From: Minisyncoccota bacterium
GTDB lineage: Bacteria; Patescibacteriota; Minisyncoccia; Phycocordibacterales; UBA9973
Assembly: GCA_041650615.1 (NCBI GenBank)
Contig: JBAZKU010000001.1
Coordinates: 524,854 to 588,853, forward strand
Length of the DNA: 64,000 nucleotides
Reading direction: 5' to 3'
Of the stretch, positions 4,587 through 30,108 are shown one piece after another. The notes beneath the pieces are model-generated. The model saw nothing but the letters and a program-made list of their open reading frames with translations, had not been told where the DNA came from and ran no database searches. Position 1 is the stretch's first letter. Each line of letters begins with the position of its first letter. The translations under genes and the position numbers were made by a program.

Positions 4587-4607
4587 CATATTAAAAATAA
4601 TATTTAT

Positions 4608-4637
4608 CAAAAAATCTCCCAATTGGGAGATTTTTTG
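4608..4637 (+). terminator. Rho-independent terminator after the surface-protein gene pair
   Basis: Perfect palindrome ATCTCCCAATTGGGAGAT (4614-4631) followed by a TTTTTTG run. Confidence 0.6.
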
Positions 4638-4644
4638 ATATAAT
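4636..4644 (+). promoter_or_regulatory. Extended -10 box TGaTATAAT, 6 nt upstream of the pilB ATG (leaderless-type promoter)
   Basis: TGATATAAT at 4636-4644; ATG at 4651. Confidence 0.45.
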
Positions 4645-4650
4645 AAACTA

Positions 4651-6402
4651 ATGCAAATCAATAAGGAGCAATTGAAAAAAGTTATTTTAGACTCGGGAAT
4701 TGTTTCGCGTTCCGAACTTGACGAGGCAGTTAAAAAAGCAGAGGCAAAAAAACAAAAACTCGGCGATATTTTGTTGTCGGATGGTAAAATATCTGAAGCT
4801 GATTTAAAACGAATGGAAGCTTTTGTTTTAGAAATACCTTTTGTTAATTTAATTAATAAAAAAATTGATCCTTCCGTTCTTTCTCTTGTTCCGGAACCGA
4901 TTGCCAGAAATCATAACATTATTGCTTATAAAAAAAGCGAGACAGGTTTGGAGGTGGCCATGCTGGATGTTGACGATTTGCCGATAATAGATTTCATCAA
5001 AAAACGGGCGGGCGGAAAAATTCTACCCCGACTTACCGATACCGATTCAATAAAATCGGCGTTGGTGCAGTATAGAAAAAGTTTGCAGGCCGATTTTGAC
5101 AACATTATTCAAAAAGAATCCTTGTCTCTGAAAACCGATAAAGATTCAAAAGAGCTGGAGAAAACGGAAAAAGAACTGAAAGACTTGGCTGAAGATTTAC
5201 CGGTAATTAAAATCGTTGATTCCTTGATTTCTCACGCCATCTTGCAAAATGCTTCCGATGTTCATATTGAACCGGGAGAAAATGAATTGATTGTAAGATA
5301 CAGAATAGACGGTATGTTGCATGATGCTATGATTTTGGATAAAAACACAGCGCCGGGCATTATTACTCGCATAAAAGTGCTGGCCAATTTGAAGCTTGAT
5401 GAAAAAAGATTGCCTCAAGACGGCAGATTTAAAATAGATCAAAATGGAGACAAAGTTTCCTTTCGTGTTTCCACTTTGCCGACTTTTTACGGCGAAAAAG
5501 CGGTAATCAGAATTTTAAAAGAAGGCTCACAGGGTTTTTCTTTGGAAATGCTTGGTTTTCATGGGGAAGGATTGGAAAGGATTCACGATTCCTTAAAGCA
5601 AAAAATTGGAATGATTCTTGCTACCGGACCTACCGGAAGTGGAAAAACGACCACTCTTTACACCATGCTTGAAATTTTAAATAAGCCGGAAGTGAATATT
5701 TCCACCGTAGAGGACCCGATTGAATATCAAATGACCAGAATAAATCAAACTCAAGTAAAACCGGAGATAGGGCTTACTTTCGCAAACGGACTTCGTTCTC
5801 TTCTTCGCCAAGACCCGGATATAGTGATGGTTGGAGAAATTCGCGACGGGGAGACGGCCGGATTGGCTATTAATGCCTCGCTTACCGGGCATCTTGTTTT
5901 GTCTACTATCCACACCAATTCCGCCGCGGGAGCAATTCCAAGATTGATGGATATGGGAGTTTTGCCGTTTCTAATAATTTCAACCGTTAAAACAATTATT
6001 GCCCAGAGGCTGGTGCGAAGACTTACCCCAAGCAAAGAAAAATATTTTTTATCAGCGGATGAACTGAAGAATTTGGCAAAGCTTATTGATTTGGACCGCA
6101 TGCTTTTGATATTAAAAAATGAAAAACTTATAGGACCGGGAGATACGTGGGGAAAAGTTCCTTTTTATAAGCCGGTGGGGAACAGCGAATCGCCGGACGG
6201 GTATTCGGACCGTATTGGAATTCATGAAGTGTTGAAAGTGACGTCTTCCATCAAAGAATTGATTATTCGGGGAAGTTCTCAGGATGAAATAGAAGCGCAG
6301 GCGAAAAAAGAAGGGATGATAACGATTCTGGAAGATGGAGTCTTTCAGTCGGTTTTAGGGAATACGAGCTTAGAAGAAGTGTTTAGAGTGGTTTCCGAGT
6401 AG
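4651..6402 (+). CDS. pilB: Type IV pilus assembly ATPase PilB (GspE family)
   Basis: GspE-N domain at the N-terminus. Walker A GPTGSGKTTTLYTML, Asp box IVMVGEIRD, His box HLVLSTIHTNSAAGAIPRL. Confidence 0.9.
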   Translation: MQINKEQLKKVILDSGIVSRSELDEAVKKAEAKKQKLGDILLSDGKISEADLKRMEAFVLEIPFVNLINKKIDPSVLSLVPEPIARNHNIIAYKKSETGLEVAMLDVDDLPIIDFIKKRAGGKILPRLTDTDSIKSALVQYRKSLQADFDNIIQKESLSLKTDKDSKELEKTEKELKDLAEDLPVIKIVDSLISHAILQNASDVHIEPGENELIVRYRIDGMLHDAMILDKNTAPGIITRIKVLANLKLDEKRLPQDGRFKIDQNGDKVSFRVSTLPTFYGEKAVIRILKEGSQGFSLEMLGFHGEGLERIHDSLKQKIGMILATGPTGSGKTTTLYTMLEILNKPEVNISTVEDPIEYQMTRINQTQVKPEIGLTFANGLRSLLRQDPDIVMVGEIRDGETAGLAINASLTGHLVLSTIHTNSAAGAIPRLMDMGVLPFLIISTVKTIIAQRLVRRLTPSKEKYFLSADELKNLAKLIDLDRMLLILKNEKLIGPGDTWGKVPFYKPVGNSESPDGYSDRIGIHEVLKVTSSIKELIIRGSSQDEIEAQAKKEGMITILEDGVFQSVLGNTSLEEVFRVVSE

Positions 6403-6429
6403 TTTCTTAAAAACAATAAATAAAACATT

Positions 6430-7647
6430 ATGCTTTTTTTATACAAAGCAAAACTAAAGAGCGGAGAAATTATAGAAGGAACGATGGAATCAGCAGACCG
6501 CTTTTCTCTTTCCCGCGAATTGAAATCTCGCGGGAATATTCCTATATCCATAAAAGAGAAAAAAAAGAGTTCTCTTGACCCTTCAAAAATATTCGGGTAT
6601 TTCTTTTCAAGAGTGAAAATTGGAGAACAAATTATTTTTACCAAAAACTTGAGCGGGATGCTTAAAGCCGGACTTTCTCTCTTTAGAGCCTTATCTGTTT
6701 TAAAAAAACAGACAAAAAATGCCGCTCTTGATAAGATTTTAACGTCACTTTCCGATGAAATAAATGCCGGGGGGACGCTTTCTTCCGGAATGGCAAAATT
6801 TCCGGATGTTTTTTCAAAACTTTTTGTTTCAATGACGCGCGCCGGAGAGGAATCCGGCAATCTCTCCGGCGCGCTTTCCGAAATAGGTATGAATTTGGAA
6901 AAAGCGCATTCTTTGACTAAAAAAATAAAAGGAGCACTTGTTTATCCGGGAGTAATTCTTTCCGCTATGATTTTAATAGGTATTTTAATGTTTGCTTTTG
7001 TCGTGCCGACACTGGCTAGCACATTTAAAGAACTTGGAGTGGAATTACCCACTTCAACCAAATTTATAATTGCCTTAGGAAATTTCTTTTCTCAATATTT
7101 AATTTTATCTCTTGTTTTAATAATAGGATCCGTGGTTGGAATAATTTCTTTCTTGCGCGCCTCTTTTATAAAAAAATATGTTGATTTTGTAATTATAAAA
7201 CTCCCTGTTATCGGCGATATGTCCAAGGAATTGAATACTGCTCGTACCGCGCGCACTATGTCTTCTTTATTATTGTCAGGCGTATCTATAATTAGGGCGA
7301 TTGAAATAACAGAAGATGTAGTACAGAATGTCTATTATAAAAAAGTTCTGAATCAGGCAAAAGAAGAAATAGAAAAGGGGGCTCCGTTCTCCAAAGCTTT
7401 TGAAGAGAGTCCGGATCTTTATCCAGTGATGATGACAGAGATGGTTCAGGTGGGGGAAGAGACTGGGAATCTGTCGGATATGTTGCTTCAAGTCGCTTCT
7501 TTTTATGAAGGAGAGGTAGAAAATAAAACAAAAAATCTTTCCACCATTATTGAACCGGTTTTAATGATTATTATCGGCGCCGCCGTCGGTTTCTTCGCCA
7601 TTTCCATGATTACCCCTTTGTACTCGGTGATGGATAATATAGAATAA
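6430..7647 (+). CDS. pilC: Type IV pilus inner-membrane platform protein PilC (GspF family)
   Basis: Two T2SS-F repeats (LKAGLSLFRAL...; IIRAIEITEDVVQN...). Three transmembrane segments, about 400 aa. Sits directly downstream of pilB. Confidence 0.85.
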   Translation: MLFLYKAKLKSGEIIEGTMESADRFSLSRELKSRGNIPISIKEKKKSSLDPSKIFGYFFSRVKIGEQIIFTKNLSGMLKAGLSLFRALSVLKKQTKNAALDKILTSLSDEINAGGTLSSGMAKFPDVFSKLFVSMTRAGEESGNLSGALSEIGMNLEKAHSLTKKIKGALVYPGVILSAMILIGILMFAFVVPTLASTFKELGVELPTSTKFIIALGNFFSQYLILSLVLIIGSVVGIISFLRASFIKKYVDFVIIKLPVIGDMSKELNTARTARTMSSLLLSGVSIIRAIEITEDVVQNVYYKKVLNQAKEEIEKGAPFSKAFEESPDLYPVMMTEMVQVGEETGNLSDMLLQVASFYEGEVENKTKNLSTIIEPVLMIIIGAAVGFFAISMITPLYSVMDNIE

Positions 7648-7722
7648 AACTTGACTTTTTCTTTTAAAAGTGTATTGTTAACAACAAAGACAATCATTGT
7701 TATTTAAAAAAGGAAGGAAATT

Positions 7723-8304
7723 ATGGAAACTGCGCTCTCTCCCATTCTACGGTTGAAAGAACCCTCTTACCAAGGGAAACCATATCATATTATTGCCAAT
7801 AAACTTTTTTCCAAAAAGATGGCAATTATTCTTAAACCAACCGAGAAAAGATTTAATGTTAAAAACGATCTTTCCGAACTTTTGTCAGTGAAAGGGAAAG
7901 ACAGAAAAATTGATCGGATTGATCCTAATTTTATCGACTGGTTTGGAAATGTTACGATTAACGGACGCAAAGAAGAAACTGTGTCATTCTTGTATGAGTT
8001 TTTAAAGGATTTGTCTCATAAAGAGATAATATCGATAAGTAAAGAATATCGAGTATATAAAAAATTCAACATATTCGATGCAGTTTTATTGATCCAAAAG
8101 ATTATTGATATCAACGAAATCTGGATTCCAAACGCGACAAGAATTGCTATCCTTTTGGAAGAACAACACAATAATCTGGAGTGCAAACTGGAAGTATTTT
8201 GTGTTACTGGCGGAAAAATCAGAGTTCGTGTATACGAAACTAATCCCGCTATCAGGTACAGTGTTGGTGGATTTATTGTTTTTGGTAAAAGAGACGAGAT
8301 TTAA
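7723..8304 (+). CDS. Hypothetical protein (193 aa) downstream of pilC
   Basis: Intact ORF with an upstream AGGAAGGA Shine-Dalgarno sequence. No recognisable motif. Confidence 0.4.
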   Translation: METALSPILRLKEPSYQGKPYHIIANKLFSKKMAIILKPTEKRFNVKNDLSELLSVKGKDRKIDRIDPNFIDWFGNVTINGRKEETVSFLYEFLKDLSHKEIISISKEYRVYKKFNIFDAVLLIQKIIDINEIWIPNATRIAILLEEQHNNLECKLEVFCVTGGKIRVRVYETNPAIRYSVGGFIVFGKRDEI

Positions 8305-8344
8305 ATTTGGGCCCTTTGATATTTTTTCTATATCTTGGGGCCTT

Positions 8345-9805
8345 TTAATTTTTCACTTCCTGCCAAGAAAGTATTTGGTAGTTGTCGGAAGTTAAAGGAA
8401 AACTCGGAGGGGGAGCGTAAAGCAGATTGGCATCATAGGCTATGTTTCTGGTAGTGTATCCGGTTCCATCAGTATAAGCAAATCCATATCGGTCGTGAGA
8501 GGCAATCATTCCATAAAGAGAAATAGTAGAACGGTTTTCGTATTCACAACTACTTCCCCCATAATAAAATCTCCCCACATTGTCGTTTTGCGCTATTAGG
8601 GCGGCGTCTATTTTTAAATCATTGTCGCTAATCATCCCAACTTGAATTCCTCCCTGTCCGATTAATCCCAGGGAGTCTGTGCCATTATAGTTGGTATAAA
8701 GAATATCATTATTTACTATGATATTTTTAAATTTTGTTGTATCGGTCGGCACTGGTAAATCAGCGGCAGTAATGGTTAAACGAGCATTATTTATTTGACC
8801 GTCAATTACCAGATGGTCTTCCATAAAAATTATCCCATTTAACGGGAAAGGATAATTGCCTTGGAGAGTTTCTGTGCCAACGCTCCAACTTACGCTAGTT
8901 CCCCAGCAATCTCCCAAATCCGCCCAAGAATTTATTTTATATAAATCAAAAGTATTATTGGTTTTTAAAACTATATGGTATCCGACATATCCACTTCCGG
9001 CAGCATCTCTATAGAATCCATTTTCCGAATCTGCGTCATCTTTTAAAGTTGCCAAATCCGTTGTAAAACCTGAAAAATCGATTGTCGGCTGGCTTATTAA
9101 ACGTCCGGCTTGAAATACATCCGGGCGGGAAGGAATAGAACTCGGATTTGCTTCGGCTGCTTGGTAACTTTCGTCAATCCCGGTTGCCGGAGGAACTCTC
9201 ACGTGGGTATGCACCCCGATTTCATTTTCACCATAATGGTCGGGGTCATTGTAAGTTGTTACTCCGCTGGTAATTATATTATGAGCAAGCCCGTCAAAAC
9301 GAATACCTCCATTTGAATGAATAGGCCCGAAAATTTCTGTGCCTTGTCCAAATCGCATATTGGCATGTCCGGCAAAAGCAAATTTGGCAATTGATGGTTT
9401 TGCCACCCTGCTTTCTATTTTTCGCAAAATTGAAGGGTCTGCTAAAGTGGAACCGGTAGATTTTATTTTAACCAGAGTTGAACCCATTGAAGGGGCGGTA
9501 ATTTCAAGAGAAAATTGTCCGACAGTAGTTCCATTTTTGTCTTTTAAGAGATGTACATAAGGTCCATCCACTTCAGTGCCGTCTTTATAATCTGATGGAG
9601 CATGAGCCAAATGCCAGCGATAATAATCTATCCCAGCTTCAGCTATTTGAAATGATTGTTCTCTGTTAAAAGTTTCCCGTCCGCTTTTTATGGATATGGC
9701 TGCCCAACCCGCAAGCGCGGTAATAATACAAATAGATACTGCGCCGAAAATCACCACGTAAATTAGAAGTATTCCCTTATTCTTTTGAATATTTTTCCTT
9801 TTCAT
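8345..9805 (-). CDS. Membrane-anchored protein with PilX-like N-terminus; last gene of the minor-pilin operon
   Basis: N-terminal transmembrane segment ILLIYVVIFGAVSICIITALAGWAAIS followed by ...FQIAEAGIDYY (resembles PilX_N). Co-oriented with two prepilin genes. Confidence 0.45.
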   Translation of the reverse strand: MKRKNIQKNKGILLIYVVIFGAVSICIITALAGWAAISIKSGRETFNREQSFQIAEAGIDYYRWHLAHAPSDYKDGTEVDGPYVHLLKDKNGTTVGQFSLEITAPSMGSTLVKIKSTGSTLADPSILRKIESRVAKPSIAKFAFAGHANMRFGQGTEIFGPIHSNGGIRFDGLAHNIITSGVTTYNDPDHYGENEIGVHTHVRVPPATGIDESYQAAEANPSSIPSRPDVFQAGRLISQPTIDFSGFTTDLATLKDDADSENGFYRDAAGSGYVGYHIVLKTNNTFDLYKINSWADLGDCWGTSVSWSVGTETLQGNYPFPLNGIIFMEDHLVIDGQINNARLTITAADLPVPTDTTKFKNIIVNNDILYTNYNGTDSLGLIGQGGIQVGMISDNDLKIDAALIAQNDNVGRFYYGGSSCEYENRSTISLYGMIASHDRYGFAYTDGTGYTTRNIAYDANLLYAPPPSFPLTSDNYQILSWQEVKN

Positions 9806-21200: not shown

Positions 21201-21533
21201 ATGGAACTAAAAGAATATCAAAAGAAAGCATTAACAACAGCTATTCACCCAGAGAAATATAAGGTTATTTATCCTGCTTTAGGGCTTGGAAATGAGTCTG
21301 GAGAAGTAATGGGTAAAATTAAAAAATGGTTACGTGGAGACGACGGTGAAGGCATAATGAGCAAGGAGCGTAAAGAAGCATTAAAAGGAGAACTAGGAGA
21401 TGTTTTGTGGTATTTGGCAGTATTATCTCATGATTTAGATCTTTCTCTTGAGGATATAGCTAAATATAATTTAGATAAATTACAATCGAGAAAAAAAAGA
21501 GGAATATTGAAAGGAGATGGAGATAAAAGATAA
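21201..21533 (+). CDS. MazG-like nucleotide pyrophosphohydrolase (small, single domain)
   Basis: ELGDVLWYLAVLS and an EY..KA..T N-terminal helix; 110 aa. Confidence 0.7.
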   Translation: MELKEYQKKALTTAIHPEKYKVIYPALGLGNESGEVMGKIKKWLRGDDGEGIMSKERKEALKGELGDVLWYLAVLSHDLDLSLEDIAKYNLDKLQSRKKRGILKGDGDKR

Positions 21534-23331
21534 TTCAATGAAAGAGAAAATAGAAAATTTAATAAGAGAAACTCTTAAAAATCTCAAAGTAGAGGCTGGA
21601 GATATTATTCTTGAACATCCGGAAGATTTTAAAAATGGGGATTATTCTACGAATGTAGTTTTTGCTATAGTTTCTAATTTTACACCTATTGATGTTGAAA
21701 AAAAGAAAAGATTATTTGATGGAGGTTTAGTTGGTGAAAGAAGTGGAAATCTTAAAGAGCTCGCAGAAAAAATTGTTAAAGAATTAAACAAAAATTTACT
21801 TGAAGAAATTTTAAAAATTGAAGTTGCTGGGGCTGGCTTTGTAAACTTTTATTTAACACAAGAATTTTTTGTCAATTCCGTAAAAGAAATTTTAGAAAAT
21901 AAAAATTTTGGACAAAACAATCTTTTTGTAAATAAAAAAATAATGGTTGAATATACCCAGCCGAACCCATTTAAGCCTTTTCATATCGGGCATTTAATGA
22001 GCAATGCCATAGGCGAATCTATTTCGCGAATCATTGAATTTTCCGGAGCGAAAACAATTCGCGCCAATTATCAGGGCGACGTAGGTCCGCATGTAGCCAA
22101 AGCCATTTATCAAATGCTAAAAAATAAAAATGATACAAGTTCTGCCATGTCAGAAAATATGTCATTGACTGAAAAAGCCAGTTATATAGGACAGTCTTAT
22201 GCGGAAGGCAATGATGTTTATGAAAAAGATGAAAAAATTAAAAAAGAAATTGATGAAATAAACAAAAAAGTTTACGATAGGAGCGATAAAAAAATAAATG
22301 AAATTTATGATTGGGGAAAAAGAATCACCCTTGAAGCTTTTGAAGAAATTTATAAGACACTTGGTACGAATTTTAATTATTATTTTTTTGAAAGTCTGGT
22401 AGCTCCAACAGGCCAAAAAATTGTAGAGGAGAAGTTAGGTAAAGTTTTTGAAAAATCGGACAAGGCTATTGTATTTAAGGCCGAAAAATATGATCCAAAG
22501 CTTCATACTCGGGTTTTTATCACTTCGCAAGGGTTGCCTACTTATGAAACCAAAGAACTCGGACTCACCAAAACAAAATTTGAAAAAGAAAGTTTGGATA
22601 TGTCGGTAGTGGTTACGGCCAATGAACAAGAGGATTATATGAAAGTAGTGAAAAAAGCGCTTGAAATAATGAATCCTGAGATTGCTTCCAAGATGAAACA
22701 TATTGTTCATGGGATGATGCGCCTGGCTTCTGGCAAGATGTCTTCCAGGAAGGGCAATGTGATTACCGGAGAATCTTTGATTTCAGAGGCGTGTGATGAA
22801 ATTCTGGAAAAAATAAAAGACAGGGACTTTACAGAGGAAGAAAAAAGGCAAATTAGTAAAGATGTCGGAGTTTCAGCCTTAAAATATTCCATTCTAAAAC
22901 AAAATATTGGCGGAAATATTATTTATGATTTTGGAAAATCCATTTCTTTTGAAGGGGATTCCGGGCCATATTTGCAATATTCCTATGCTCGTGCCAATTC
23001 TGTTTTGGAAAAGGCAAAAGCAGAAAATATCTTGCCGGGCTTTTTATTGGATGATAAAAAATCCGAGATTCTTCCATTAGGAGACATAGAAAAATTATTA
23101 TACAGATTTCCAGAAGTTGTTTTAAGGTCAGCAGAAGAATTTGAACCGCATCATATTGTAAATTATTTAATAGATATCGCTCGCGCCTTTAACACTTATT
23201 ATGGGAACACAAAAATTATAGACAAAGACGATCCAATGTCGCCTTACAAAATAGCTCTCACCTTGGCTTTCTCTATGGTTATGAAAAATGGACTATATCT
23301 TCTAGGTATAAAAGCCCCAGGAAGGATGTAA
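21517..23331 (+). CDS. argS: Arginyl-tRNA synthetase (start probably ATG at 21538)
   Basis: PNPFKPFHIGHLMSNAIGESISRI HIGH region. C-terminal DALR-type segment ALKYSILKQNIGGNIIYDF. Confidence 0.88.
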   Translation: MEIKDNSMKEKIENLIRETLKNLKVEAGDIILEHPEDFKNGDYSTNVVFAIVSNFTPIDVEKKKRLFDGGLVGERSGNLKELAEKIVKELNKNLLEEILKIEVAGAGFVNFYLTQEFFVNSVKEILENKNFGQNNLFVNKKIMVEYTQPNPFKPFHIGHLMSNAIGESISRIIEFSGAKTIRANYQGDVGPHVAKAIYQMLKNKNDTSSAMSENMSLTEKASYIGQSYAEGNDVYEKDEKIKKEIDEINKKVYDRSDKKINEIYDWGKRITLEAFEEIYKTLGTNFNYYFFESLVAPTGQKIVEEKLGKVFEKSDKAIVFKAEKYDPKLHTRVFITSQGLPTYETKELGLTKTKFEKESLDMSVVVTANEQEDYMKVVKKALEIMNPEIASKMKHIVHGMMRLASGKMSSRKGNVITGESLISEACDEILEKIKDRDFTEEEKRQISKDVGVSALKYSILKQNIGGNIIYDFGKSISFEGDSGPYLQYSYARANSVLEKAKAENILPGFLLDDKKSEILPLGDIEKLLYRFPEVVLRSAEEFEPHHIVNYLIDIARAFNTYYGNTKIIDKDDPMSPYKIALTLAFSMVMKNGLYLLGIKAPGRM

Positions 23332-23364: not shown

Positions 23365-26300
23365 ATGGCTGAAAATGAATTAAGTAATCCCATGCGAAAC
23401 AACGGTTCACAAAGTGAACCTGTTTCTGACGGGACAGGGAAATCGGAATCCGCGCTTCGAGAAGAAGCCGTTTTAAAATTTTGGAAAGAAAATAATGTAT
23501 TTCAGAAATCTTTAGAAAAAAAATCACCGAGAGGAGAATTTATTTTTTATGAAGGTCCGCCGACGGCTAATGGCAAACCGGGGATTCACCACCTTGAAGC
23601 GCGAGCATTTAAGGATGCTATTCCGAGGTATAAAACAATGCGAGGATTTCATGTGCGTCGCAAGGGCGGGTGGGATACCCATGGTTTGCCCGTTGAACTT
23701 CAAGTGGAGAAAAAATTGAACCTAGATTCAAAAATTGCCATTGAAAAATATGGTATTGCAAAATTTAATCAGCAATGCAAAGAAAGTGTTTGGGAATATG
23801 TTGACCTTTGGGGTAAATTTACCGAACGCATCGGTTATTGGGTAGACCAAGAAAATCCATATGTGACTTATCATAATAATTACATTGAATCTGTTTGGAA
23901 TATTTTAAAAAAAGTTAGTGCTCAAAATTTGCTTTATAAAGATTATAAAGTTGTGCCTTGGTGTCCGCGTTGTGGAACAGTTCTTTCCTCACATGAGCTT
24001 GCACAAGGATATGAAACCATAAAAGACTTGTCAGTGTACGTAAAATTCAAAATAAAAGAACAAGAAAACATTTTTATTCTTGCTTGGACCACTACACCGT
24101 GGACACTACCAGGCAACGTAGCGCTTGCTGTAGGCAAAAATATTGATTATGTAAAAATAAAAAAAGAAAATGAATTTTTGATATTAGCAGAAGAAAGACT
24201 TTCCGTTATAGACGGTGAATATGAAGTTATTGAAGAATTAAAAGGCAAAGATTTAATTGGTTTGGAATACGAACCGCTTTATCCATTTTTACAAAACACT
24301 ATTTCCGGAAAAGAAAAAGATAAAATGAATAAAGCCTATAAAATTTATAGTGCGAATTTTGTGACCACCGAAGATGGCACAGGGATAGTTCACACTGCCG
24401 TGATGTACGGACAGGACGACTTTGTGCTTGGTAATAAAGTAGGTCTGCCGAAACATCATCTCGTTGGCTTGGATGGAAAATTTTTAGCCGGTACAGGATT
24501 TTTGGAAGGCAGATTTGTACGGGATGAAGATGTGGCCGTGGATATTATAAAAGATTTGGCTCAAAAAGGACTTCTACTGAAAAAAGAAAAATATGAACAC
24601 TCCTATCCTCATTGCTGGCGTTGTCATACCGCCCTCATTTACTATGCTCGTGATTCTTGGTATATCAAAATGTCCGACTCGAAAATCAAACAGAAAATGA
24701 TTGAAGAAAATAAAGATATTAATTGGGAACCGGCACATATTCGTGATGGACGCTTCGGCGAGTGGTTGAAAGACATTAAAGATTGGGCAATATCGCGCGA
24801 ACGTTATTGGGGAAGTCCGCTTCCGGTTTGGATTTGTGAAACTTGTAAAAAGATTGAGGTTGTTGGAAGTTCGGAAGAATTGAAAGAAAAAGCAAAAAAA
24901 TCCGGGAATAAGTATTTTATAATGAGACATGGGGAAGCGGAGAATAATCTTGAAAGTGATACTGATTATAAAAATCTTAATCTCAACGCTAAATTAACAG
25001 AAAGAGGAATAGAAGAAATATTAACAAGTTGTAAAAATTTTAAAGAAAAAATTGATATAATTATTTCCTCGCCACTTGAACGAGCAAAAGAAACCACTAA
25101 AATAGTTTGTGGGCAGGTTGGTTTTCCATTTGAAAAAATCATTTACAATCAAAAAATTCAAGAATGGGAAGTTAGCTCCATTTTTAAAGGAAAGGAAAAA
25201 GCTATTTTTAAAAAATATTATGACGAAGATTATCTAGATAAACCAGATGAAGCTTTACCTGATGGAGAGAGTTTTGCGGAGGTAATTAAAAGAGTCGGTC
25301 AATTTATTTATGAGCTGGAAGTACAATATTCTAATAAAAATATTTTGATTGTCGGCCACGAAGGAGTAACTAATGCCTTAACTTTTGTAATAAAAGGATT
25401 GTCGTTAGATAGCTTATCAAAATTAAATAATCCATTTACTCCTATAAAAAATGCTGAAATAAGAGAATTTGATTTTATTCCGCTTCCGCATAATGAAAAC
25501 TATGAATTAGATTTGCACAGGCCTTACATTGATGAAATTCCGCTCGTTTGCGAATGCGGAGGAAAAATGACGCGTACCAAAGAAGTTATGGATGTATGGC
25601 TTGATTCCGGCGCTATGCCTTTTGCGCAGGACCATTACCCCTTTGACTTTGCTCGGGGTAAACCTTTTGAAAATAAAAAATTATCATATCCGGCTGACTT
25701 TATCTGCGAAGCGATAGACCAGACACGCGGGTGGTTTTACACTTTGCATGCGGTGGGAATTTTAATGGGAAAAGGGAAGGCATATAAAAATGTAATTTGT
25801 TTGGGACACTTGCTTGATGCCAAAGGGAAGAAAATGTCCAAATCCCTCGGGAATATTGTAGATCCGTGGGAGATGGTAGAGAAATATGGCGCGGATACAC
25901 TGCGTCTTTGGATGTATTCAATAAACCAGCCTGGGGAATCAAAGAATTTTGATGAAAAAACAGTTTTGGAACTTCATAGGCAGGTTTTTGGCTTGCTTTA
26001 TAATGTTTTGGCTTTTTATGAATTATATAGAAATAAAAATTTAGAAAATAATAATAGACCAAAATCAGATAATATTCTGGATATTTGGATTTTGGCCAAA
26101 TTAGATGAATTGATAGAATTAATAACAAAAAGTCTTGATAAATATAAGCTACTTGAGCCAACAAGAGCTATTCGCGATTTTATCGGCGACCTTTCTACTT
26201 GGTATTTGCGTCGTTCACGAGACAGAATTAAAGAAGGTAATATTGAAGCCAAGCAAACTTTATATTTTGTGTTGAAAAATCTGGCGAAATTAATGGCTCC

Positions 26301-26910
26301 ATTTGCCCCGCTTGCCGCCGAGGATATTTGGTTGAAATTAAAAAATAAAGATGATGCAGAAAGTGTGCATTTAACAAGTTGGCCTGTTAAAAAGTTTAAA
26401 ATTTTCTCTTTCAGTAAAACTAGGGTTTTAGAAAGCATGGAAACAGTCCGAAAAATAGTTACTCTTGGTCTTGAAGCCCGCCAGAAGGCAGGAATTAAAG
26501 TTCGTCAGCCGTTGAACCGATTGGAAATTGTAGCTGGGAGACTATTAAATGATTATCTTGAAATAATAAAAGATGAATTGAATGTTAAAAATGTTGATTA
26601 TTTATTAAAAATAAAAATAGGTTTATATAAAGTAACTCTTGATACGAAAATTACTCCCGAATTAAAACGAGAAGGAAATTATCGCGAACTAGCCAGAGCT
26701 ATTCAAGATATGCGCAAGAAAATGGGGCTTACCCCGAGTGATATTGTTTCTCTGGTTGTTGAAACAGATGAAGAAGGTAAAAAATTAATTCAAAAATTTG
26801 AAGTTGAAATAAAGAAAACTATTCTTGTGTCAAAAATAGAATTTAAACAAAACAATGGCGAGGAAATCAAAATAGATGAGCTAGTTTTTAAAATATTTAT
26901 TCAAAAATGA
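23365..26910 (+). CDS. ileS: Isoleucyl-tRNA synthetase with an inserted histidine-phosphatase-like domain of about 210 aa
   Basis: FYEGPPTANGKPGIHHLEARAFKD, editing/CP1 region, KMSKS at KMSKSLGN, C-terminal tRNA-binding region. Residues about 505-715 contain RHGE, SSPLERAKET and VGHEG motifs. Confidence 0.88.
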   Translation: MAENELSNPMRNNGSQSEPVSDGTGKSESALREEAVLKFWKENNVFQKSLEKKSPRGEFIFYEGPPTANGKPGIHHLEARAFKDAIPRYKTMRGFHVRRKGGWDTHGLPVELQVEKKLNLDSKIAIEKYGIAKFNQQCKESVWEYVDLWGKFTERIGYWVDQENPYVTYHNNYIESVWNILKKVSAQNLLYKDYKVVPWCPRCGTVLSSHELAQGYETIKDLSVYVKFKIKEQENIFILAWTTTPWTLPGNVALAVGKNIDYVKIKKENEFLILAEERLSVIDGEYEVIEELKGKDLIGLEYEPLYPFLQNTISGKEKDKMNKAYKIYSANFVTTEDGTGIVHTAVMYGQDDFVLGNKVGLPKHHLVGLDGKFLAGTGFLEGRFVRDEDVAVDIIKDLAQKGLLLKKEKYEHSYPHCWRCHTALIYYARDSWYIKMSDSKIKQKMIEENKDINWEPAHIRDGRFGEWLKDIKDWAISRERYWGSPLPVWICETCKKIEVVGSSEELKEKAKKSGNKYFIMRHGEAENNLESDTDYKNLNLNAKLTERGIEEILTSCKNFKEKIDIIISSPLERAKETTKIVCGQVGFPFEKIIYNQKIQEWEVSSIFKGKEKAIFKKYYDEDYLDKPDEALPDGESFAEVIKRVGQFIYELEVQYSNKNILIVGHEGVTNALTFVIKGLSLDSLSKLNNPFTPIKNAEIREFDFIPLPHNENYELDLHRPYIDEIPLVCECGGKMTRTKEVMDVWLDSGAMPFAQDHYPFDFARGKPFENKKLSYPADFICEAIDQTRGWFYTLHAVGILMGKGKAYKNVICLGHLLDAKGKKMSKSLGNIVDPWEMVEKYGADTLRLWMYSINQPGESKNFDEKTVLELHRQVFGLLYNVLAFYELYRNKNLENNNRPKSDNILDIWILAKLDELIELITKSLDKYKLLEPTRAIRDFIGDLSTWYLRRSRDRIKEGNIEAKQTLYFVLKNLAKLMAPFAPLAAEDIWLKLKNKDDAESVHLTSWPVKKFKIFSFSKTRVLESMETVRKIVTLGLEARQKAGIKVRQPLNRLEIVAGRLLNDYLEIIKDELNVKNVDYLLKIKIGLYKVTLDTKITPELKREGNYRELARAIQDMRKKMGLTPSDIVSLVVETDEEGKKLIQKFEVEIKKTILVSKIEFKQNNGEEIKIDELVFKIFIQK

Positions 26911-27587
26911 ACGTAGAAAATAAAAAATTGGTAATCTTTGACTTTGACGGAGTGTTGGCCAATACCTTGGAATTTTCTTTTAAAATTCATAAAGACATAA
27001 ACGGAAATTTAACTTGGGAAAAGTTTCAAAAATTTGCTATGGGAGATTTCCATGAAGAAATGAGAAGATCCGTTGAAAAAGAATCTCATATTATTCCTAA
27101 AAATTTCTATGAACTTTATGAGAAAAACCTTAATGAGATAGGGATTAATGAGGTCCTGCGAGCCACTGTTTCCGAACTCAGGAACAATCATAAGCTTGCT
27201 ATTGTTTCTTCTACCAGTAGTTCTTACATTTCTAATTTTTTAGAAAAAGAAAAAATACTTAGTTATTTTAATGACATTCTTGGGCAGGATGTGCATACCA
27301 GTAAAATAGTAAAAATAAATACTTTACTTGAGAGATACAAAATAATACCGAATTATGCTGTTTTTATTACTGATTCCCTAGGAGATATTCTTGAAGGAAA
27401 TGAATGCAAAATCAAATCCATAGGTGTTACCTGGGGAATCCACGGAAAAGAAACGCTTAAAAAAGGCAACCCATCGGCAATCATCGATGACCCAAGAGAT
27501 TTATTAGAAACAATTCAGAATGTGTTAAAATTAGATTCTAATGCATCACATTTATCACACGGAAGGAATAATATTGGGGAGCAATAA
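26907..27587 (+). CDS. HAD-superfamily hydrolase
   Basis: Motif I LVIFDFDGVLANT; D-rich motif ITDSLGD. Confidence 0.7.
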   Translation: MNVENKKLVIFDFDGVLANTLEFSFKIHKDINGNLTWEKFQKFAMGDFHEEMRRSVEKESHIIPKNFYELYEKNLNEIGINEVLRATVSELRNNHKLAIVSSTSSSYISNFLEKEKILSYFNDILGQDVHTSKIVKINTLLERYKIIPNYAVFITDSLGDILEGNECKIKSIGVTWGIHGKETLKKGNPSAIIDDPRDLLETIQNVLKLDSNASHLSHGRNNIGEQ

Positions 27588-28119
27588 TTTCGGGGAAACC
27601 GGAAAATATTATGCCATTTTTACTCGCGATTTGGGGATGATTTATGCTTCTGCACAAGGGGTGCGCAAAATGTCTTCAAAACTACGTTTTGTTTTGCAGG
27701 ATTTTGCCTACCTCAAAATTGACCTGGTAAAAGGAAAAGATTTTTGGCGAGTAACAAATGCATCAAAAACAAATAAACTTGAAAATTTATCCAAATTGGA
27801 AATTTTTGAAGTTTTTATAAATATTTCAAAATTATTAAAACGCTTGCTGGCCGGAGAAGACCCAAATAAAGATTTATTTGTTGATTTGATAAATGGATTA
27901 TCGGTTTTAGAGAAATCCAAAACAAAAGATGAATTACGCAATATTGAAGCTGTTATTGTTTTACGTACTCTTAATAATTTGGGATATATAGGAGGCAATG
28001 AAGTGTTGCAAGACTTCATCAAGTCGCCATTTGAGGAAGATATAATCTTTAAAGTTTCGGAGAGCAGGGTAAAAATATTGCATCAAATAAACAAAGCCCT
28101 CAAAGAGACACATTTGTAA
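27541..28119 (+). CDS. recO: DNA repair protein RecO (short form)
   Basis: N-terminal OB domain EGIILGSNNFGETGKYYAIFTRDLGMIYASAQGVRKMSSKL matches the RecO_N pattern. Confidence 0.65.
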   Translation: MHHIYHTEGIILGSNNFGETGKYYAIFTRDLGMIYASAQGVRKMSSKLRFVLQDFAYLKIDLVKGKDFWRVTNASKTNKLENLSKLEIFEVFINISKLLKRLLAGEDPNKDLFVDLINGLSVLEKSKTKDELRNIEAVIVLRTLNNLGYIGGNEVLQDFIKSPFEEDIIFKVSESRVKILHQINKALKETHL

Positions 28120-28176: not shown

Positions 28177-30108
28177 ATGCCACTTCACGATAGAGATAAA
28201 TTAAATAGATTAGAAGAGCTAAAAAGCAAGCTCTTTAATAAAGATTACCAAACAAAAATCGAACATCGCGACAGCTTCCCGCATTTCCAAAAAAGGGAAG
28301 TAATGGACTCTTGGATAAAAAAAGAAAATACTGAACCAAACTTAGGAGAAAAATTTTTTATGAAAACGTCCATGTTTAAGAAATTTTTTATATTTTCCAT
28401 AGTTTTTTTTATTTTAGCAATAGGCTATGCTGCTTATACATTTTTTGCCAATAGCAATAGTGTTTCCAACGACAATATCGATATTTCCGTACTCAGTAAT
28501 GCTTTCACTGCCGGCGGAGAGGATTATTCTCTTTTACTGGAAATAACAAATAAAAACAATTCTCCCCTTGAACTTGCTGATCTCATAATAGAATATCCGA
28601 ATGGTTCACAAGAGAGTTCCCAGGGAGACAGCGATCATTTGCGTCTATCTTTAGGGACAATTCCAGCCGGAGGAATAAAAAATGAGAATGTAAATATAAT
28701 ACTTTTTGGCGAACAGGGAAGTACGAGTGAAATAAAAATTTCCCTTGAGTATAGAGTAGAAGGTTCAAACGCTATTTTTGTAAAAGAAAAAACTTATAAT
28801 GTTTCTATAAATTCCACGCCCATAAATCTTTCAATTGACGCTCCCACTGAAGCAACTTCCAATCAAAATATCAATCTTGGCGTAAAGGCTACTTTAAACT
28901 CTACTAAATCTGCCTCTAATATGCTTCTGAAAGTTGATTACCCAATTGGTTTTCAATTTGTGAAAGCAACACCTGCGCCGTCCTTGGGTAATAATATTTG
29001 GAATCTAGGAGATCTTGCACCTGGCATGGAACGCAGTATTTCCATTTCTGGTAAAATGATTGATGTTTTTGATGGAGAACAGAAAGTTTTTAGAGCGTGG
29101 AGCGGATCCCAATCTCCTACAGACAAATCTTTGATCGGAGTTGTTTTTAATTCTCTAGAACATATTGTTATGATAACGAAGCCCTCAATTAATGCAGAGC
29201 TTCTCGTAAATGGTGTTTTGGATACAAAGTATGTTATAGACACCAAGACTCCGATTCAAGGACAAATACAGTGGACAAATAATCTGGAAACAAAAATAAA
29301 TAATTTGAAAATTGTGGCAAAGATTTCCGGCAATGCGGTTAATCGGGGGACAATATCAGGAGGACAAGGTTTCTACAGTTCGTCGCAAGATATGATAACT
29401 TGGGATAAGAATTCTCAAAGCCAATTTGCGGAAATAAATCCAGGAGATTCTGGATCCGTATCTTTTTCTCTTTCCTCTCTTTCTCTTTTTTCTGCCGCTG
29501 GCGGGATTATATCTTCCCCTTCTATTAATATAGATGTTTCTATTACAGGTGAACAGGCGCAAAGCAGTGGTAGTATTACGGAATTAAGCAATGAAAGTTC
29601 CAAAGTTATAAAAGTTATTTCCGATATTGGACTTTCAAATAAGGTGCTTTATAGTTCAGGGGTATTTACAAATAGCGGGCCAATACCTCCCAAAGTGGAA
29701 CAGAAAACAACTTATACTATTGTTTGGTCCCTTTCCAATACTGCAAATAATATTTCAAAAGCCAAAGTAGTTTCTACCCTTCCGCCCTGGGTGCGATTTA
29801 TCGGGTCATTTTCCCCAACAACAGAAGATTTAACTTTTAATGATTCCACAAAAGAAATAGTTTGGAATATCGGAGGAATTCCAGCAGGTACCGGCATTAC
29901 CGGAGCGGACAGAGAGGTTTCTTTTCAAATAGAGCTTACTCCTTCGCTTTCCCAGGTTGGCACTATGCCTGTTCTCGTAAACGATACAACTTTGACCGGA
30001 TACGATGATTTTGCTAATGTGGATGTGAGAGTAAATAAAGCATCACTTAATACCAGATTGCTAAATGATCCTAGTTTCCCAGCCAGTGGAGATAGAGTGG
30101 TAGAATAA
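28177..30108 (+). CDS. Membrane-anchored surface protein with DUF11/CARDB-like conserved repeat domains
   Basis: Cytoplasmic N-terminus of about 65 aa, transmembrane segment FFIFSIVFFILAIGYAAYTFF, then repeat domains (KVDYPIGFQFVKATPAPSLGNNIWNLGDLAPGMERSISISG; VVSTLPPWVRFIGSFSPTTEDLTFNDSTKEIVWNIGGIPAGTG). Confidence 0.55.
   Translation: MPLHDRDKLNRLEELKSKLFNKDYQTKIEHRDSFPHFQKREVMDSWIKKENTEPNLGEKFFMKTSMFKKFFIFSIVFFILAIGYAAYTFFANSNSVSNDNIDISVLSNAFTAGGEDYSLLLEITNKNNSPLELADLIIEYPNGSQESSQGDSDHLRLSLGTIPAGGIKNENVNIILFGEQGSTSEIKISLEYRVEGSNAIFVKEKTYNVSINSTPINLSIDAPTEATSNQNINLGVKATLNSTKSASNMLLKVDYPIGFQFVKATPAPSLGNNIWNLGDLAPGMERSISISGKMIDVFDGEQKVFRAWSGSQSPTDKSLIGVVFNSLEHIVMITKPSINAELLVNGVLDTKYVIDTKTPIQGQIQWTNNLETKINNLKIVAKISGNAVNRGTISGGQGFYSSSQDMITWDKNSQSQFAEINPGDSGSVSFSLSSLSLFSAAGGIISSPSINIDVSITGEQAQSSGSITELSNESSKVIKVISDIGLSNKVLYSSGVFTNSGPIPPKVEQKTTYTIVWSLSNTANNISKAKVVSTLPPWVRFIGSFSPTTEDLTFNDSTKEIVWNIGGIPAGTGITGADREVSFQIELTPSLSQVGTMPVLVNDTTLTGYDDFANVDVRVNKASLNTRLLNDPSFPASGDRVVE

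Follow-up and report, generated by a model that had tools for sequence, protein, structure and literature searches.

A type-2 isoleucyl-tRNA synthetase of Patescibacteria with a predicted histidine phosphatase nested at its zinc knuckle

INTRODUCTION

Few enzymes have been studied as thoroughly as the aminoacyl-tRNA synthetases, and each kind of accessory domain that they carry (for editing, tRNA binding, or signalling) has brought new biology to light. One principle is common to the CP1 editing domain of class Ia synthetases, the leucine-specific domain of LeuRS, and the module of the ileS_w_GNAT family: a functional domain is inserted in or appended to the Rossmann-fold catalytic domain. The closest described relatives of the protein reported here are the type-2 isoleucyl-tRNA synthetases (IleRS) of Priestia megaterium (IleRS2; PDB 8c8u, 8c8v, and 8c8w) and Thermus thermophilus (1ile). 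Some IleRS2 enzymes carry GxHH, a natural variant of the HIGH signature that confers mupirocin hyper-resistance (PMC10485003).

Characterised histidine phosphatases such as PspA (4ij5), PhoE (1h2e), glucosyl-3-phosphoglycerate phosphatase (GpgP; 6s2q), CobC (6e4b), and SixA (1ujc) are free-standing proteins. Two described systems join such a domain to a partner, namely, mycobacterial MutT1 (Nudix plus His_Phos; 3fjy and 9cxx) and the bifunctional RNase H/acid phosphatase (PRK07238, Rv2228c type), and both are end-to-end fusions. Here we describe an IleRS in which, in contrast to all of these, a histidine phosphatase domain is embedded in an aminoacyl-tRNA synthetase and nested within its partner's catalytic domain.

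RESULTS

The host protein is a type-2 IleRS

The window (the whole 64,000-nucleotide stretch of DNA that was analysed) encodes a 1,181-residue protein at 23365..26910 (this and all other features given here lie on the + strand); its NCBI entry, MFA5095595.1, matches our protein P0020 exactly. The ileS model TIGR00392 matches it in two stretches that flank the insert, with 869.7 bits for the whole protein (cutoff, 621.4), and the Pfam domains found are tRNA-synt_1, His_Phos_1, Anticodon_1, and DUF5915. The best PDB matches are the IleRS2 structures 8c8w and 1ile (E 7e-241), while the IleRS1 structures 1ffy and 8c9f match far more weakly. We took as type 2 an IleRS that lacks the C-terminal treble-clef zinc-binding domain and has IleRS2 structures as its nearest matches; the window protein has these nearest structures and carries DUF5915 (PF19302) at residues 1089 to 1181. 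It is collinear over its full length with the solved type-2 enzymes except for the insert, and it shares with them the DUF5915 C terminus, the CP1 editing domain, KMSKS, and, in IleRS2, the GxHH variant.

The signatures of a class Ia IleRS are all present. HIGH appears as the noncanonical GIHH (residues 73 to 76; 23581..23592), which aligns with GVHH in the mutant structure 8c8w. The CP1 editing domain (approximately residues 216 to 416; 24010..24612) matches the isolated editing-domain structures 1wk8 and 1wny, contains the motifs TTTPWT and GTGIVH...DD in its translation, and has a pLDDT of 80 to 92 in a full-length AF2 model. In alignment A1, both cysteines of the first zinc-knuckle pair, CETC (residues 491 to 494; 24835..24846), are invariant, as are C731 of the second pair, CECG (residues 729 to 732; 25549..25560), and all of KMSKS (K823 to S827; 25831..25845); C729 is kept in at least 90% of sequences. 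Anticodon-binding and type-2 C-terminal domains occupy 26080..26907 (Anticodon_1 at residues 906 to 1050, followed by DUF5915), and the statement in an earlier note on this DNA that KMSKS and the C-terminal domain are intact is borne out. The protein falls outside the MupA/MupB families (NF000257 and NF000258; 790 to 792 bits against a cutoff of 1900) and outside NF040702, ileS_w_GNAT (326.5 bits against 1999, with no GNAT Pfam match). Its intact motifs and the conserved argS-ileS-recO locus suggest that it would aminoacylate tRNA-Ile and edit.

A phosphatase domain replaces a short loop at the zinc knuckle

In the alignment to 8c8w, query residues 509 and 712 face chain residues 477 and 483, so that the insert, with conserved linkers, comprises about residues 510 to 711 (24892..25497). 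The window protein therefore has about 200 extra residues in place of the roughly 5-residue loop of the solved IleRS2 (8c8w 477 to 483); in an insert-less relative (locus L083) the loop at this site reads VEGWQEFEGNSP. The insert occupies the end of the zinc-knuckle hairpin, after the DWxISRxRxWG strand and before the WxDSG motif, and hence leaves the synthetase fold uninterrupted. Both its family (a phosphatase) and its site (zinc knuckle, DWxISR to WxDSG) set it apart from the other class Ia modules. The reading frame is unbroken across it, and the flanking sequence is collinear with solved IleRS structures.

The earlier note had proposed an in-frame histidine phosphatase between the two zinc-knuckle Cys pairs, and Pfam, TIGR00392, the 8c8w alignment, and the motifs agree. 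CETC, CECG, and SSPLERAKETTKI (residues 568 to 580) are exactly where it placed them. RHGE and IVGHEGVTNAL are present one residue further on, at 521 to 524 and 662 to 672 rather than 520 to 523 and 661 to 671, and the span it gave, 24880..25510, locates the domain with slightly wider bounds than ours.

The insert is apparently an intact branch-1 histidine phosphatase

A significant match to a histidine phosphatase model, which the earlier note had anticipated, was found: PF00300 (His_Phos_1) covers residues 518 to 690 (E 4.8e-26), scoring 92.1 bits on the whole protein and 96.9 bits on the insert alone with a gathering threshold of 21.7. The insert has the alpha/beta fold of the superfamily, and AF2 gives it as an independent globular domain, a check that the earlier note had proposed. 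In the full-length AF2 model the pTM is 0.48 and the pLDDT of the Rossmann core is below 50, values too poor to position the phosphatase pocket with respect to the synthetic and editing sites; we draw no geometric conclusion.

The core catalytic residues of branch 1 are conserved across the family. R521 and the predicted nucleophile H522 in RHGE (24925..24936), the second phosphate-binding arginine R573 in SSPLERAKET (25081..25083), and the second catalytic histidine H665 in IVGHEG (25357..25359) are each present in 145 of 145 aligned sequences. The predicted general acid/base, E600 (25162..25164), aligns with the catalytic Glu of Schizosaccharomyces pombe PGM and of CobC; its column holds Glu in 130/145 sequences, nearly all the others have a Glu shifted by one or two columns, and it is invariant in alignment A1. 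The full set of R521, H522, N528, R573, E600, and H665 (signature RHNREERH) is kept in 116 of 119 Paceibacteria inserts. Apparently, then, the insert is an independently folding, catalytically intact branch-1 histidine phosphatase, with its activity predicted from these residues.

The label "PGM-like" holds at the level of the superfamily only, since equivalog models fall far below their cutoffs. The insert scores 31 to 37 bits against 81.7 (TIGR01258) and 37 to 41 against 225 (NF038349) for dPGM, 64.6 to 69.3 against 162.9 for the alpha-ribazole phosphatase CobC (TIGR03162), 45.7 to 49.6 against 350 for the phosphoserine phosphatase PspA (NF045917), and 28.8 to 32.5 against 74.5 for SixA (TIGR00249). 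Its nearest characterised relatives are metabolic small-molecule phosphatases (PspA, GpgP, PhoE, and CobC), and it is 17 to 25% identical to the structures of these four and of SixA. The cap or lid (approximately residues 601 to 634), the usual determinant of specificity, is poorly conserved among inserts. The median pI of the inserts is 6.1, mildly acidic; the CP1 editing domain is just as acidic, so that this value is uninformative on RNA binding.

The embedded form is widespread and under purifying selection

The earlier note had raised the question whether the insert is lineage-wide, and in Patescibacteria/Paceibacteria it is. PF00300 is found in all 120 of the nearest IleRS relatives, at least 384 GTDB species representatives encode an IleRS with the insert, and the insert adjoins both the N- and the C-terminal part of IleS in 82/82 fetched loci. 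An insert-only word-indexed search gave 19 matches, as though the architecture were rare; that search retrieved neither the window's own protein nor any full-length relative, and full-length and exhaustive searches overturned its result. Among relatives the insert is about 46% identical and the IleRS core about 76%, with a dN/dS for the insert of about 0.13 to 0.25, indicating purifying selection.

These data also bear on whether the insert could have arisen by chimeric assembly or by misjoining within the contig. Its GC content (0.27 to 0.32) is somewhat below that of the flanking IleS core (0.38 to 0.44), as such an artefact might produce, but the identical in-frame layout in the 82 independently assembled loci and 120 relatives refutes it. 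Two long-read contigs carry the same in-frame architecture, the linkers are conserved, and the insert is under purifying selection; we give an artefact practically no credence. Around the insert, a search for insertion scars and flanking repeats returned only short, chance-level matches. A single exact 10-mer repeat there encodes conserved PLP peptides.

The architecture varies among relatives. Some proteins carry two to four phosphatase copies or copies at other surface loops, and one subclade has an added C-terminal HD phosphohydrolase domain. The IleRS catalytic core is of two apparently swapped types, GxHH and HxGH, and the insert follows the organism.

A free-standing form accompanies insert-less IleRS

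Gene order at ileS is conserved as argS-ileS-recO; argS, at 21517..23331 in the window, lies upstream of ileS in 55/82 loci. In sister lineages, the nearest free-standing homologue of the insert has its own gene, which immediately precedes an ileS without insert. Of 55 loci (52 from metagenomes, together with L083, L089, and L090), 15 have the order argS-His_Phos-ileS, the three named loci among them. The genes of the free-standing proteins P0010, P0011, and P0004 lie between argS and an ileS that lacks the insert, and their starts and stops are coupled or overlap. The metagenome loci that reach 41% identity and have sufficient context comprise 15 IleS-adjacent, 1 gapped, and 21 IleS-embedded cases and no others. 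This phosphatase clade is always linked to IleS, unlike PspA, PhoE, GpgP, CobC, and SixA.

The adjacent and embedded states are intermixed on a neighbor-joining tree. Between one adjacent locus (L096) and one embedded locus (L098), the phosphatases are 77% and the ArgS proteins 71% identical, and the IleS proteins only 46 to 48%. The phosphatase family is dedicated to IleRS, and its two states have interchanged more than once. More distant free-standing relatives occur in unrelated contexts, e.g., RuBisCO and glycosyltransferase clusters, and some adjoin NUDIX and HD_4 genes. We rejected a downstream HAD phosphatase gene (26907..27587 in the window) as a functional partner, as only 9/82 loci have it.

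A parallel family occurs in ValRS

Gracilibacteria/Peregrinibacteria encode a parallel family that combines ValRS with His_Phos. Among 119 relatives of one such ValRS, 70 have between one and four copies, for the most part in the homologous loop. Separate acquisitions apparently gave rise to the inserts of ValRS and of IleRS; comparison gave no support for a single origin. About 10 ValRS-embedded copies lack the acid/base Glu and the second His (RHNRSERN or RHNRAERN) and are still retained. No His_Phos gene was seen beside an insert-less ValRS in the two loci checked.

DISCUSSION

We regard it as somewhat better than an even bet that this protein is a bifunctional enzyme, a type-2 IleRS that displays a complete histidine phosphatase in its catalytic domain as a dedicated partner. 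By analogy with the chemistry of the superfamily, H522 would attack a phosphomonoester or terminal phosphoanhydride and become phosphorylated, giving a phospho-histidine intermediate, with the phosphoryl group held by R521, R573, N528, and H665; E600 would serve as acid/base and activate water, and phosphate would be released. Because the free-standing form also accompanies IleRS, the selected property may be co-expression or physical association with IleRS rather than a precise geometry, a suggestion we make with low certainty. Tandem copies and copies at other loops likewise argue against a coupled mechanism that depends on geometry, and the ValRS subclade without Glu and second His implies that selection may act in part on a non-catalytic role.

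As to substrate, our tentative suggestion is a species formed around aminoacylation, or interfering with it, that is either a phosphorylated nucleotide or a phosphorylated RNA 3' end. AMP, a 3'-phosphorylated adenine nucleotide, and a phosphorylated tRNA CCA end are candidates, and the phosphatase module would then assist the synthetase by housecleaning or repair. The C-terminal HD domain of one subclade and the NUDIX and HD_4 neighbours of free-standing relatives are weak hints of a nucleotide substrate. A literature search found no enzyme of the histidine phosphatase superfamily that acts on RNA ends. Against a dedicated partner stand the metabolic nature of the nearest characterised relatives and the low equivalog scores. 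The poorly conserved lid also tells against it, as do the two insert-less ValRS genes that have no His_Phos neighbour, and the mild acidity does not suggest RNA binding.

A more specific version of the dedicated-partner reading, which we consider rather unlikely, makes the phosphatase a third, previously unrecognised activity of editing class Ia synthetases, which would serve quality control or repair by stripping a blocking phosphate from a molecule that the synthetase needs. Toxic RelA/SpoT-homologue enzymes make 3'-phosphorylated or pyrophosphorylated tRNA CCA ends, and such ends could be the target; a kinase-inactivated synthetase could be another. IleRS, or ValRS in Gracilibacteria, would thereby stay functional under attack, and the swaps between GxHH (the antibiotic hyper-resistance type) and HxGH cores might be part of the same arms race.

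The domain might instead be a metabolic passenger, that is, a housekeeping small-molecule phosphatase (PhoE, PspA, or CobC-like) whose chemistry is unrelated to isoleucyl-tRNA synthesis and which was joined, by fusion or co-transcription, to an essential gene of high expression in the streamlined genomes of the candidate phyla radiation (CPR), the knuckle tip being a permissive loop. The nearest sequence and structure matches are indeed metabolic phosphatases, the lid is variable, distant free-standing relatives lie near RuBisCO and glycosyltransferase genes, and tandem and multi-site copies suggest that position is irrelevant. Closer homologues, however, are exclusively IleS-associated over about 37 loci with context, and this association persists in two physical states with repeated switching. 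In the L096/L098 pair the phosphatase is better conserved than the surrounding IleS (77% versus 47%), and the paralogous ValRS separately acquired the domain at the homologous loop. Chance predicts end-to-end fusions with various genes, not repeated nesting in two editing class Ia synthetases, and we judge a passenger improbable, if not negligibly so.

Less probable again is a protein phosphatase that guards the synthetase by removing an inhibitory phosphate from IleRS, e.g., from a serine of the KMSKS loop or close to it, or that dephosphorylates a partner protein in cis or in complex. HipA/HipT-type kinase toxins do phosphorylate GltX and TrpS, but no kinase gene was seen in the conserved neighbourhood, PADLOC defence models gave no matches, and the top structural matches of the insert are capped small-molecule enzymes, whereas SixA is capless. 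We likewise find it very unlikely that the fold is kept as a pseudo-enzyme, a structural, steric, or phosphate-ligand-binding appendage that, for example, binds a phosphorylated ligand or RNA phosphate or adds bulk near the active site. The degenerate ValRS copies and a copy number ranging from one to four would suit such a module; yet the retention of every catalytic residue in 116/119 IleRS-lineage inserts, and of the four core residues in all 145 sequences, is hard to explain without catalysis.

The earlier note had taken this architecture to be undescribed, and we found no description of it in the literature searched, which was that available without subscription. The papers on IleRS evolution that were consulted, PMC10485003 among them, do not mention a phosphatase insert. 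GenBank and UniProt have contained insert-bearing proteins since 2015, but under no other names than IleRS and "class I tRNA ligase family protein"; the NCBI pipeline gives the latter name to many, the window protein included, and leaves the predicted second activity unannotated.

An intact phosphatase nested in IleRS points to a hitherto unrecognised phosphoryl-transfer reaction linked to tRNA charging in one of the major bacterial branches, as yet uncultured, a reading that draws on the conservation of the insert in hundreds of CPR species, the neighbouring-gene form, and the separate acquisition by ValRS. The mosaic exchange of IleRS cores, with its mupirocin hyper-resistance motif, suggests that IleRS-targeting antibiotics shape CPR evolution.

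Results

The window ileS gene is a single ORF of 1181 aa on the + strand (23365..26910), identified as isoleucine-tRNA ligase by NCBIfam (TIGR00392, 869.7 bits versus a cutoff of 621.4, in two stretches). Pfam assigns tRNA-synt_1, Anticodon_1, and DUF5915, the last corresponding to the type 2 C terminus, and places His_Phos_1 at residues 518 to 690, amid two tRNA-synt_1 stretches (E = 4.8e-26, 92 bits versus a cutoff of 21.7). An earlier note had claimed that a histidine phosphatase domain splits the zinc knuckle of this enzyme; every motif that it listed was found, at most 1 residue from its reported position. When aligned to the solved Priestia megaterium IleRS2, query residues 509 and 712 fall opposite chain residues 477 and 483; therefore, approximately 200 residues (the insert; residues 510 to 711, window 24892..25497) take the place of a loop of approximately 5 residues in the P. 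megaterium enzyme. This loop is flanked by Cys pairs CETC (491-494) and CECG (729-732), and an insert-less relative (L083) carries the ancestral short knuckle exactly at this position.

The KMSKS motif is intact, as are CP1 (the editing domain) and the anticodon-binding domains. The class I HIGH signature takes the swapped GxHH form, as GIHH (23581-23592; residues 73-76); a natural GxHH variant has been shown experimentally to confer mupirocin hyper-resistance on IleRS2 (PMC10485003). GxHH is found in 115 of 145 aligned family members and HxGH in 20. The full-length AF2 model is poor (pLDDT 71, pTM 0.48, with the split Rossmann core below 50), but the insert (pLDDT 82-93) and CP1 are well modelled within it. 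An exact 10-nt direct repeat, TCCGCTTCCG, is located just upstream of the insert (24816-24825) and at its 3' end (25479-25488). Both copies encode conserved PLP peptides, and the repeat is probably due to chance or codon usage rather than an insertion scar.

The embedded architecture is real and lineage-wide. The window protein exactly matches GenBank MFA5095595.1 (Candidatus Paceibacterota, 598-kb contig), and PF00300 is present in all of the 120 best full-length relatives (65 to 77% identical; 1143-1335 aa), which are named as Paceibacterota, Nomurabacteria, Minisyncoccia, and Parcubacteria. A scan covering a single genome for each GTDB species, in which relatives of the insert were recognised by the linker motif KKSGN[KR]YF, found at least 384 genomes encoding one; their titles include Nomurabacteria, Zambryskibacteria, and Campbellbacteria, and the many "uncultured Candidatus Saccharibacteria" among them may be loose labels. 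The insert directly abuts both halves of IleS in one frame in 82 of 82 fetched loci, and the same order occurs on two error-prone long-read contigs. Together with the 120 relatives and the GTDB scan, these loci exclude the assembly chimera that the note had raised, leaving an artefact with essentially no probability. When the insert served as the query, 94 of the 150 best cluster representatives (50% identity clusters) proved to lie within a class I synthetase.

Some database entries need care. Two long contigs from sample ERZ1286166 (L001 and L002), on which every gene is broken into short ORFs, are consistent with a long-read assembly rich in frameshifts; as a result, protein databases contain fragments, such as P0001 and P0002, that resemble small IleRS/His_Phos proteins. 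Contigs that encode this CPR-type IleRS with His_Phos also appear under non-CPR names, as "Nitrospira sp." (MAG, L044) and "Burkholderiales bacterium" (P0098), most likely through bin contamination or mislabelling.

Free-standing homologues closest to the insert are not dispersed across genomes. On a 539-kb CPR contig (L083), the gene order is SmpB, ArgS, His_Phos, IleS, ORF, RecO, the same syntenic locus as window ileS; here (4420-9439) a 184-aa phosphatase is followed by a 960-aa IleS without the insert, which starts 2 nt past the phosphatase stop. L089 and L090 share this order; L090 has a 4-nt overlap between the phosphatase and the ArgS stop, with an IleS N terminus as the next gene. In sister CPR lineages, among loci L083, L089, L090, and L094-L127, a separate phosphatase gene of approximately 185 aa follows argS and precedes an ileS that lacks the insert, and their stops and starts are coupled or overlap. 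Across 55 loci (these first three and 52 from a metagenome scan with free-standing proteins), the phosphatase is directly upstream of IleS in 15, upstream with a gap of approximately 950 nt in 1 more, and embedded at the same knuckle site in 21; loci with no nearby IleS occur only among weak matches (≤40% identity).

In a rough neighbor-joining tree, the IleS-associated phosphatases form one clade apart from generic ones, with adjacent and embedded forms interleaved. L096 (adjacent) and L098 (embedded) are 77% identical in the phosphatase and 71% in ArgS but only 46 to 48% in IleS. The phosphatase thus accompanies IleRS constantly, and these sequences indicate that it has moved between the adjacent and the nested state on more than one occasion. 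More distant free-standing relatives lie next to an HD_4 (RelA/SpoT-type hydrolase) gene (L091 and L092; P0012), overlap a NUDIX gene beside tilS-ftsH (L088; P0017), or are found in unrelated gene contexts. The HD_4 and NUDIX neighbours hint at a nucleotide-related substrate for the wider phosphatase family.

At the argS-ileS-recO locus of Paceibacteria, we found two widely diverged types of catalytic core, GxHH/AxHH (the type of the window protein) and canonical HYGH, which are approximately 45 to 50% identical between types and 85 to 92% within a type. We compared window segments 23485-24804 and 25645-26064 with L006, L012, L013, L017, and L059; a sliding-window comparison placed the type-specific segments at approximately residues 41-480 and 761-900. 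The insert, anticodon-binding domain, and C terminus track organismal relatedness, unlike the catalytic core: L006 and the window are 80 to 91% identical in neighbour genes, 64% in the insert, and 71% in the C terminus but only 43 to 49% in the core, whereas L006 and L059 share cores that are 88 to 92% identical and inserts that are only 41% identical. This mosaic looks as though catalytic cores had been exchanged in situ while the phosphatase stayed in place.

A parallel exists in ValRS. Four His_Phos copies occur in one ValRS, P0186, and 70 of 119 of its relatives (P0289-P0406), named as Gracilibacteria and Peregrinibacteria and up to 1626 aa long, carry one to four; close relatives without the insert also exist. 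The main site, between DWCISR and WFSS, is the loop homologous to the IleRS site, and a few proteins carry a further copy in CP2. The acid/base Glu and second His are gone from approximately 10 copies, which are therefore probably inactive. Because the ValRS-embedded domains are at least as far from the IleRS-embedded ones as from free-standing ones, the two synthetases likely acquired His_Phos separately. In two loci (L146 and L147), no His_Phos gene adjoins an insert-less ValRS.

Distant IleRS proteins (P0195, P0220, and P0253) carry His_Phos after WLDSG, before the anticodon-binding domain, or after both Cys pairs. P0220 has three sites; P0195 (1419 aa) has one copy at each of the first two and recurs at identical length in six assemblies, once on a 1.06-Mb contig. 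A Paceibacteria subclade (P0093, P0114, P0119, and P0139; approximately 1330 aa) has an HD phosphohydrolase domain in its C-terminal ~200 residues (PF01966, 35 bits; weak similarity to YfbR/HDDC2), for three predicted catalytic modules in one synthetase. In P0202 (1066 aa; JGI "isoleucyl-tRNA synthetase"), an IS200-type Y1 transposase domain lies within CP1, the knuckle carries His_Phos, and GNAT follows approximately residue 916, although the gene call may be chimeric or truncated; a curated NCBIfam family, ileS_w_GNAT (NF040702), exists.

Downstream in the window, a HAD-family phosphatase gene (26907-27587), weakly similar to phosphoglycolate phosphatase and PpaX pyrophosphatase, has a 4-nt overlap with the ileS stop codon. 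We rejected it as a partner of the insert; it is present in only 9 of 82 related loci and is therefore probably not linked. A short RecO (192 aa; 27541-28119) overlaps its end by 47 nt and is followed by a conserved 643-aa ORF without an NCBIfam match (28177-30108); these two accompany ileS in 66 and 61 of the 82 loci, respectively. Across the 64-kb window, no Rfam family reached its gathering score, and no tRNA, rRNA, or riboswitch was detected. The 20-30 kb region has a GC content of approximately 0.27 to 0.44.

Discussion

The nested architecture, its fold, an intact catalytic set under purifying selection, an association with IleS that is exclusive and takes two forms, and the parallel in ValRS are established. 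By analogy with superfamily chemistry, H522 would form the phospho-histidine intermediate, R521, R573, N528, and H665 would bind the phosphoryl group, and E600 would act as acid/base; that the insert is instead a non-catalytic module seems very improbable. Since sister lineages manage with a separate gene product, the property selected may have been joint expression or a complex with IleRS and not exact placement, an interpretation that we hold with low certainty.

As a tentative candidate for the substrate, we suggest a phosphorylated nucleotide or an RNA-end species connected with aminoacylation, hinted at by the HD and NUDIX associations and by the MutT1 and RNase H/acid phosphatase precedents. 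However, in the literature searched an RNA end has no precedent as a substrate in the histidine phosphatase superfamily, the surface of the insert is acidic, and its lid is variable. The likeliest rival, a metabolic passenger, has a low probability, and a protein phosphatase guarding IleRS a still lower one.

The freely accessible full-text literature searched does not mention the insert, and it is absent from two recent large-scale studies of IleRS evolution, one of which annotated the domain architectures of 96,219 IleRS sequences. Sequences with the embedded phosphatase have been available in public databases since 2015, with no annotation other than IleRS or "class I tRNA ligase family protein." Both components belong to known families; their nested combination and the gene-neighbour alternative appear to be undescribed. 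The finding is richer than was visible in the window sequence alone and would surprise a specialist in aminoacyl-tRNA synthetases, and the function of the IleRS-embedded phosphatase is directly testable.
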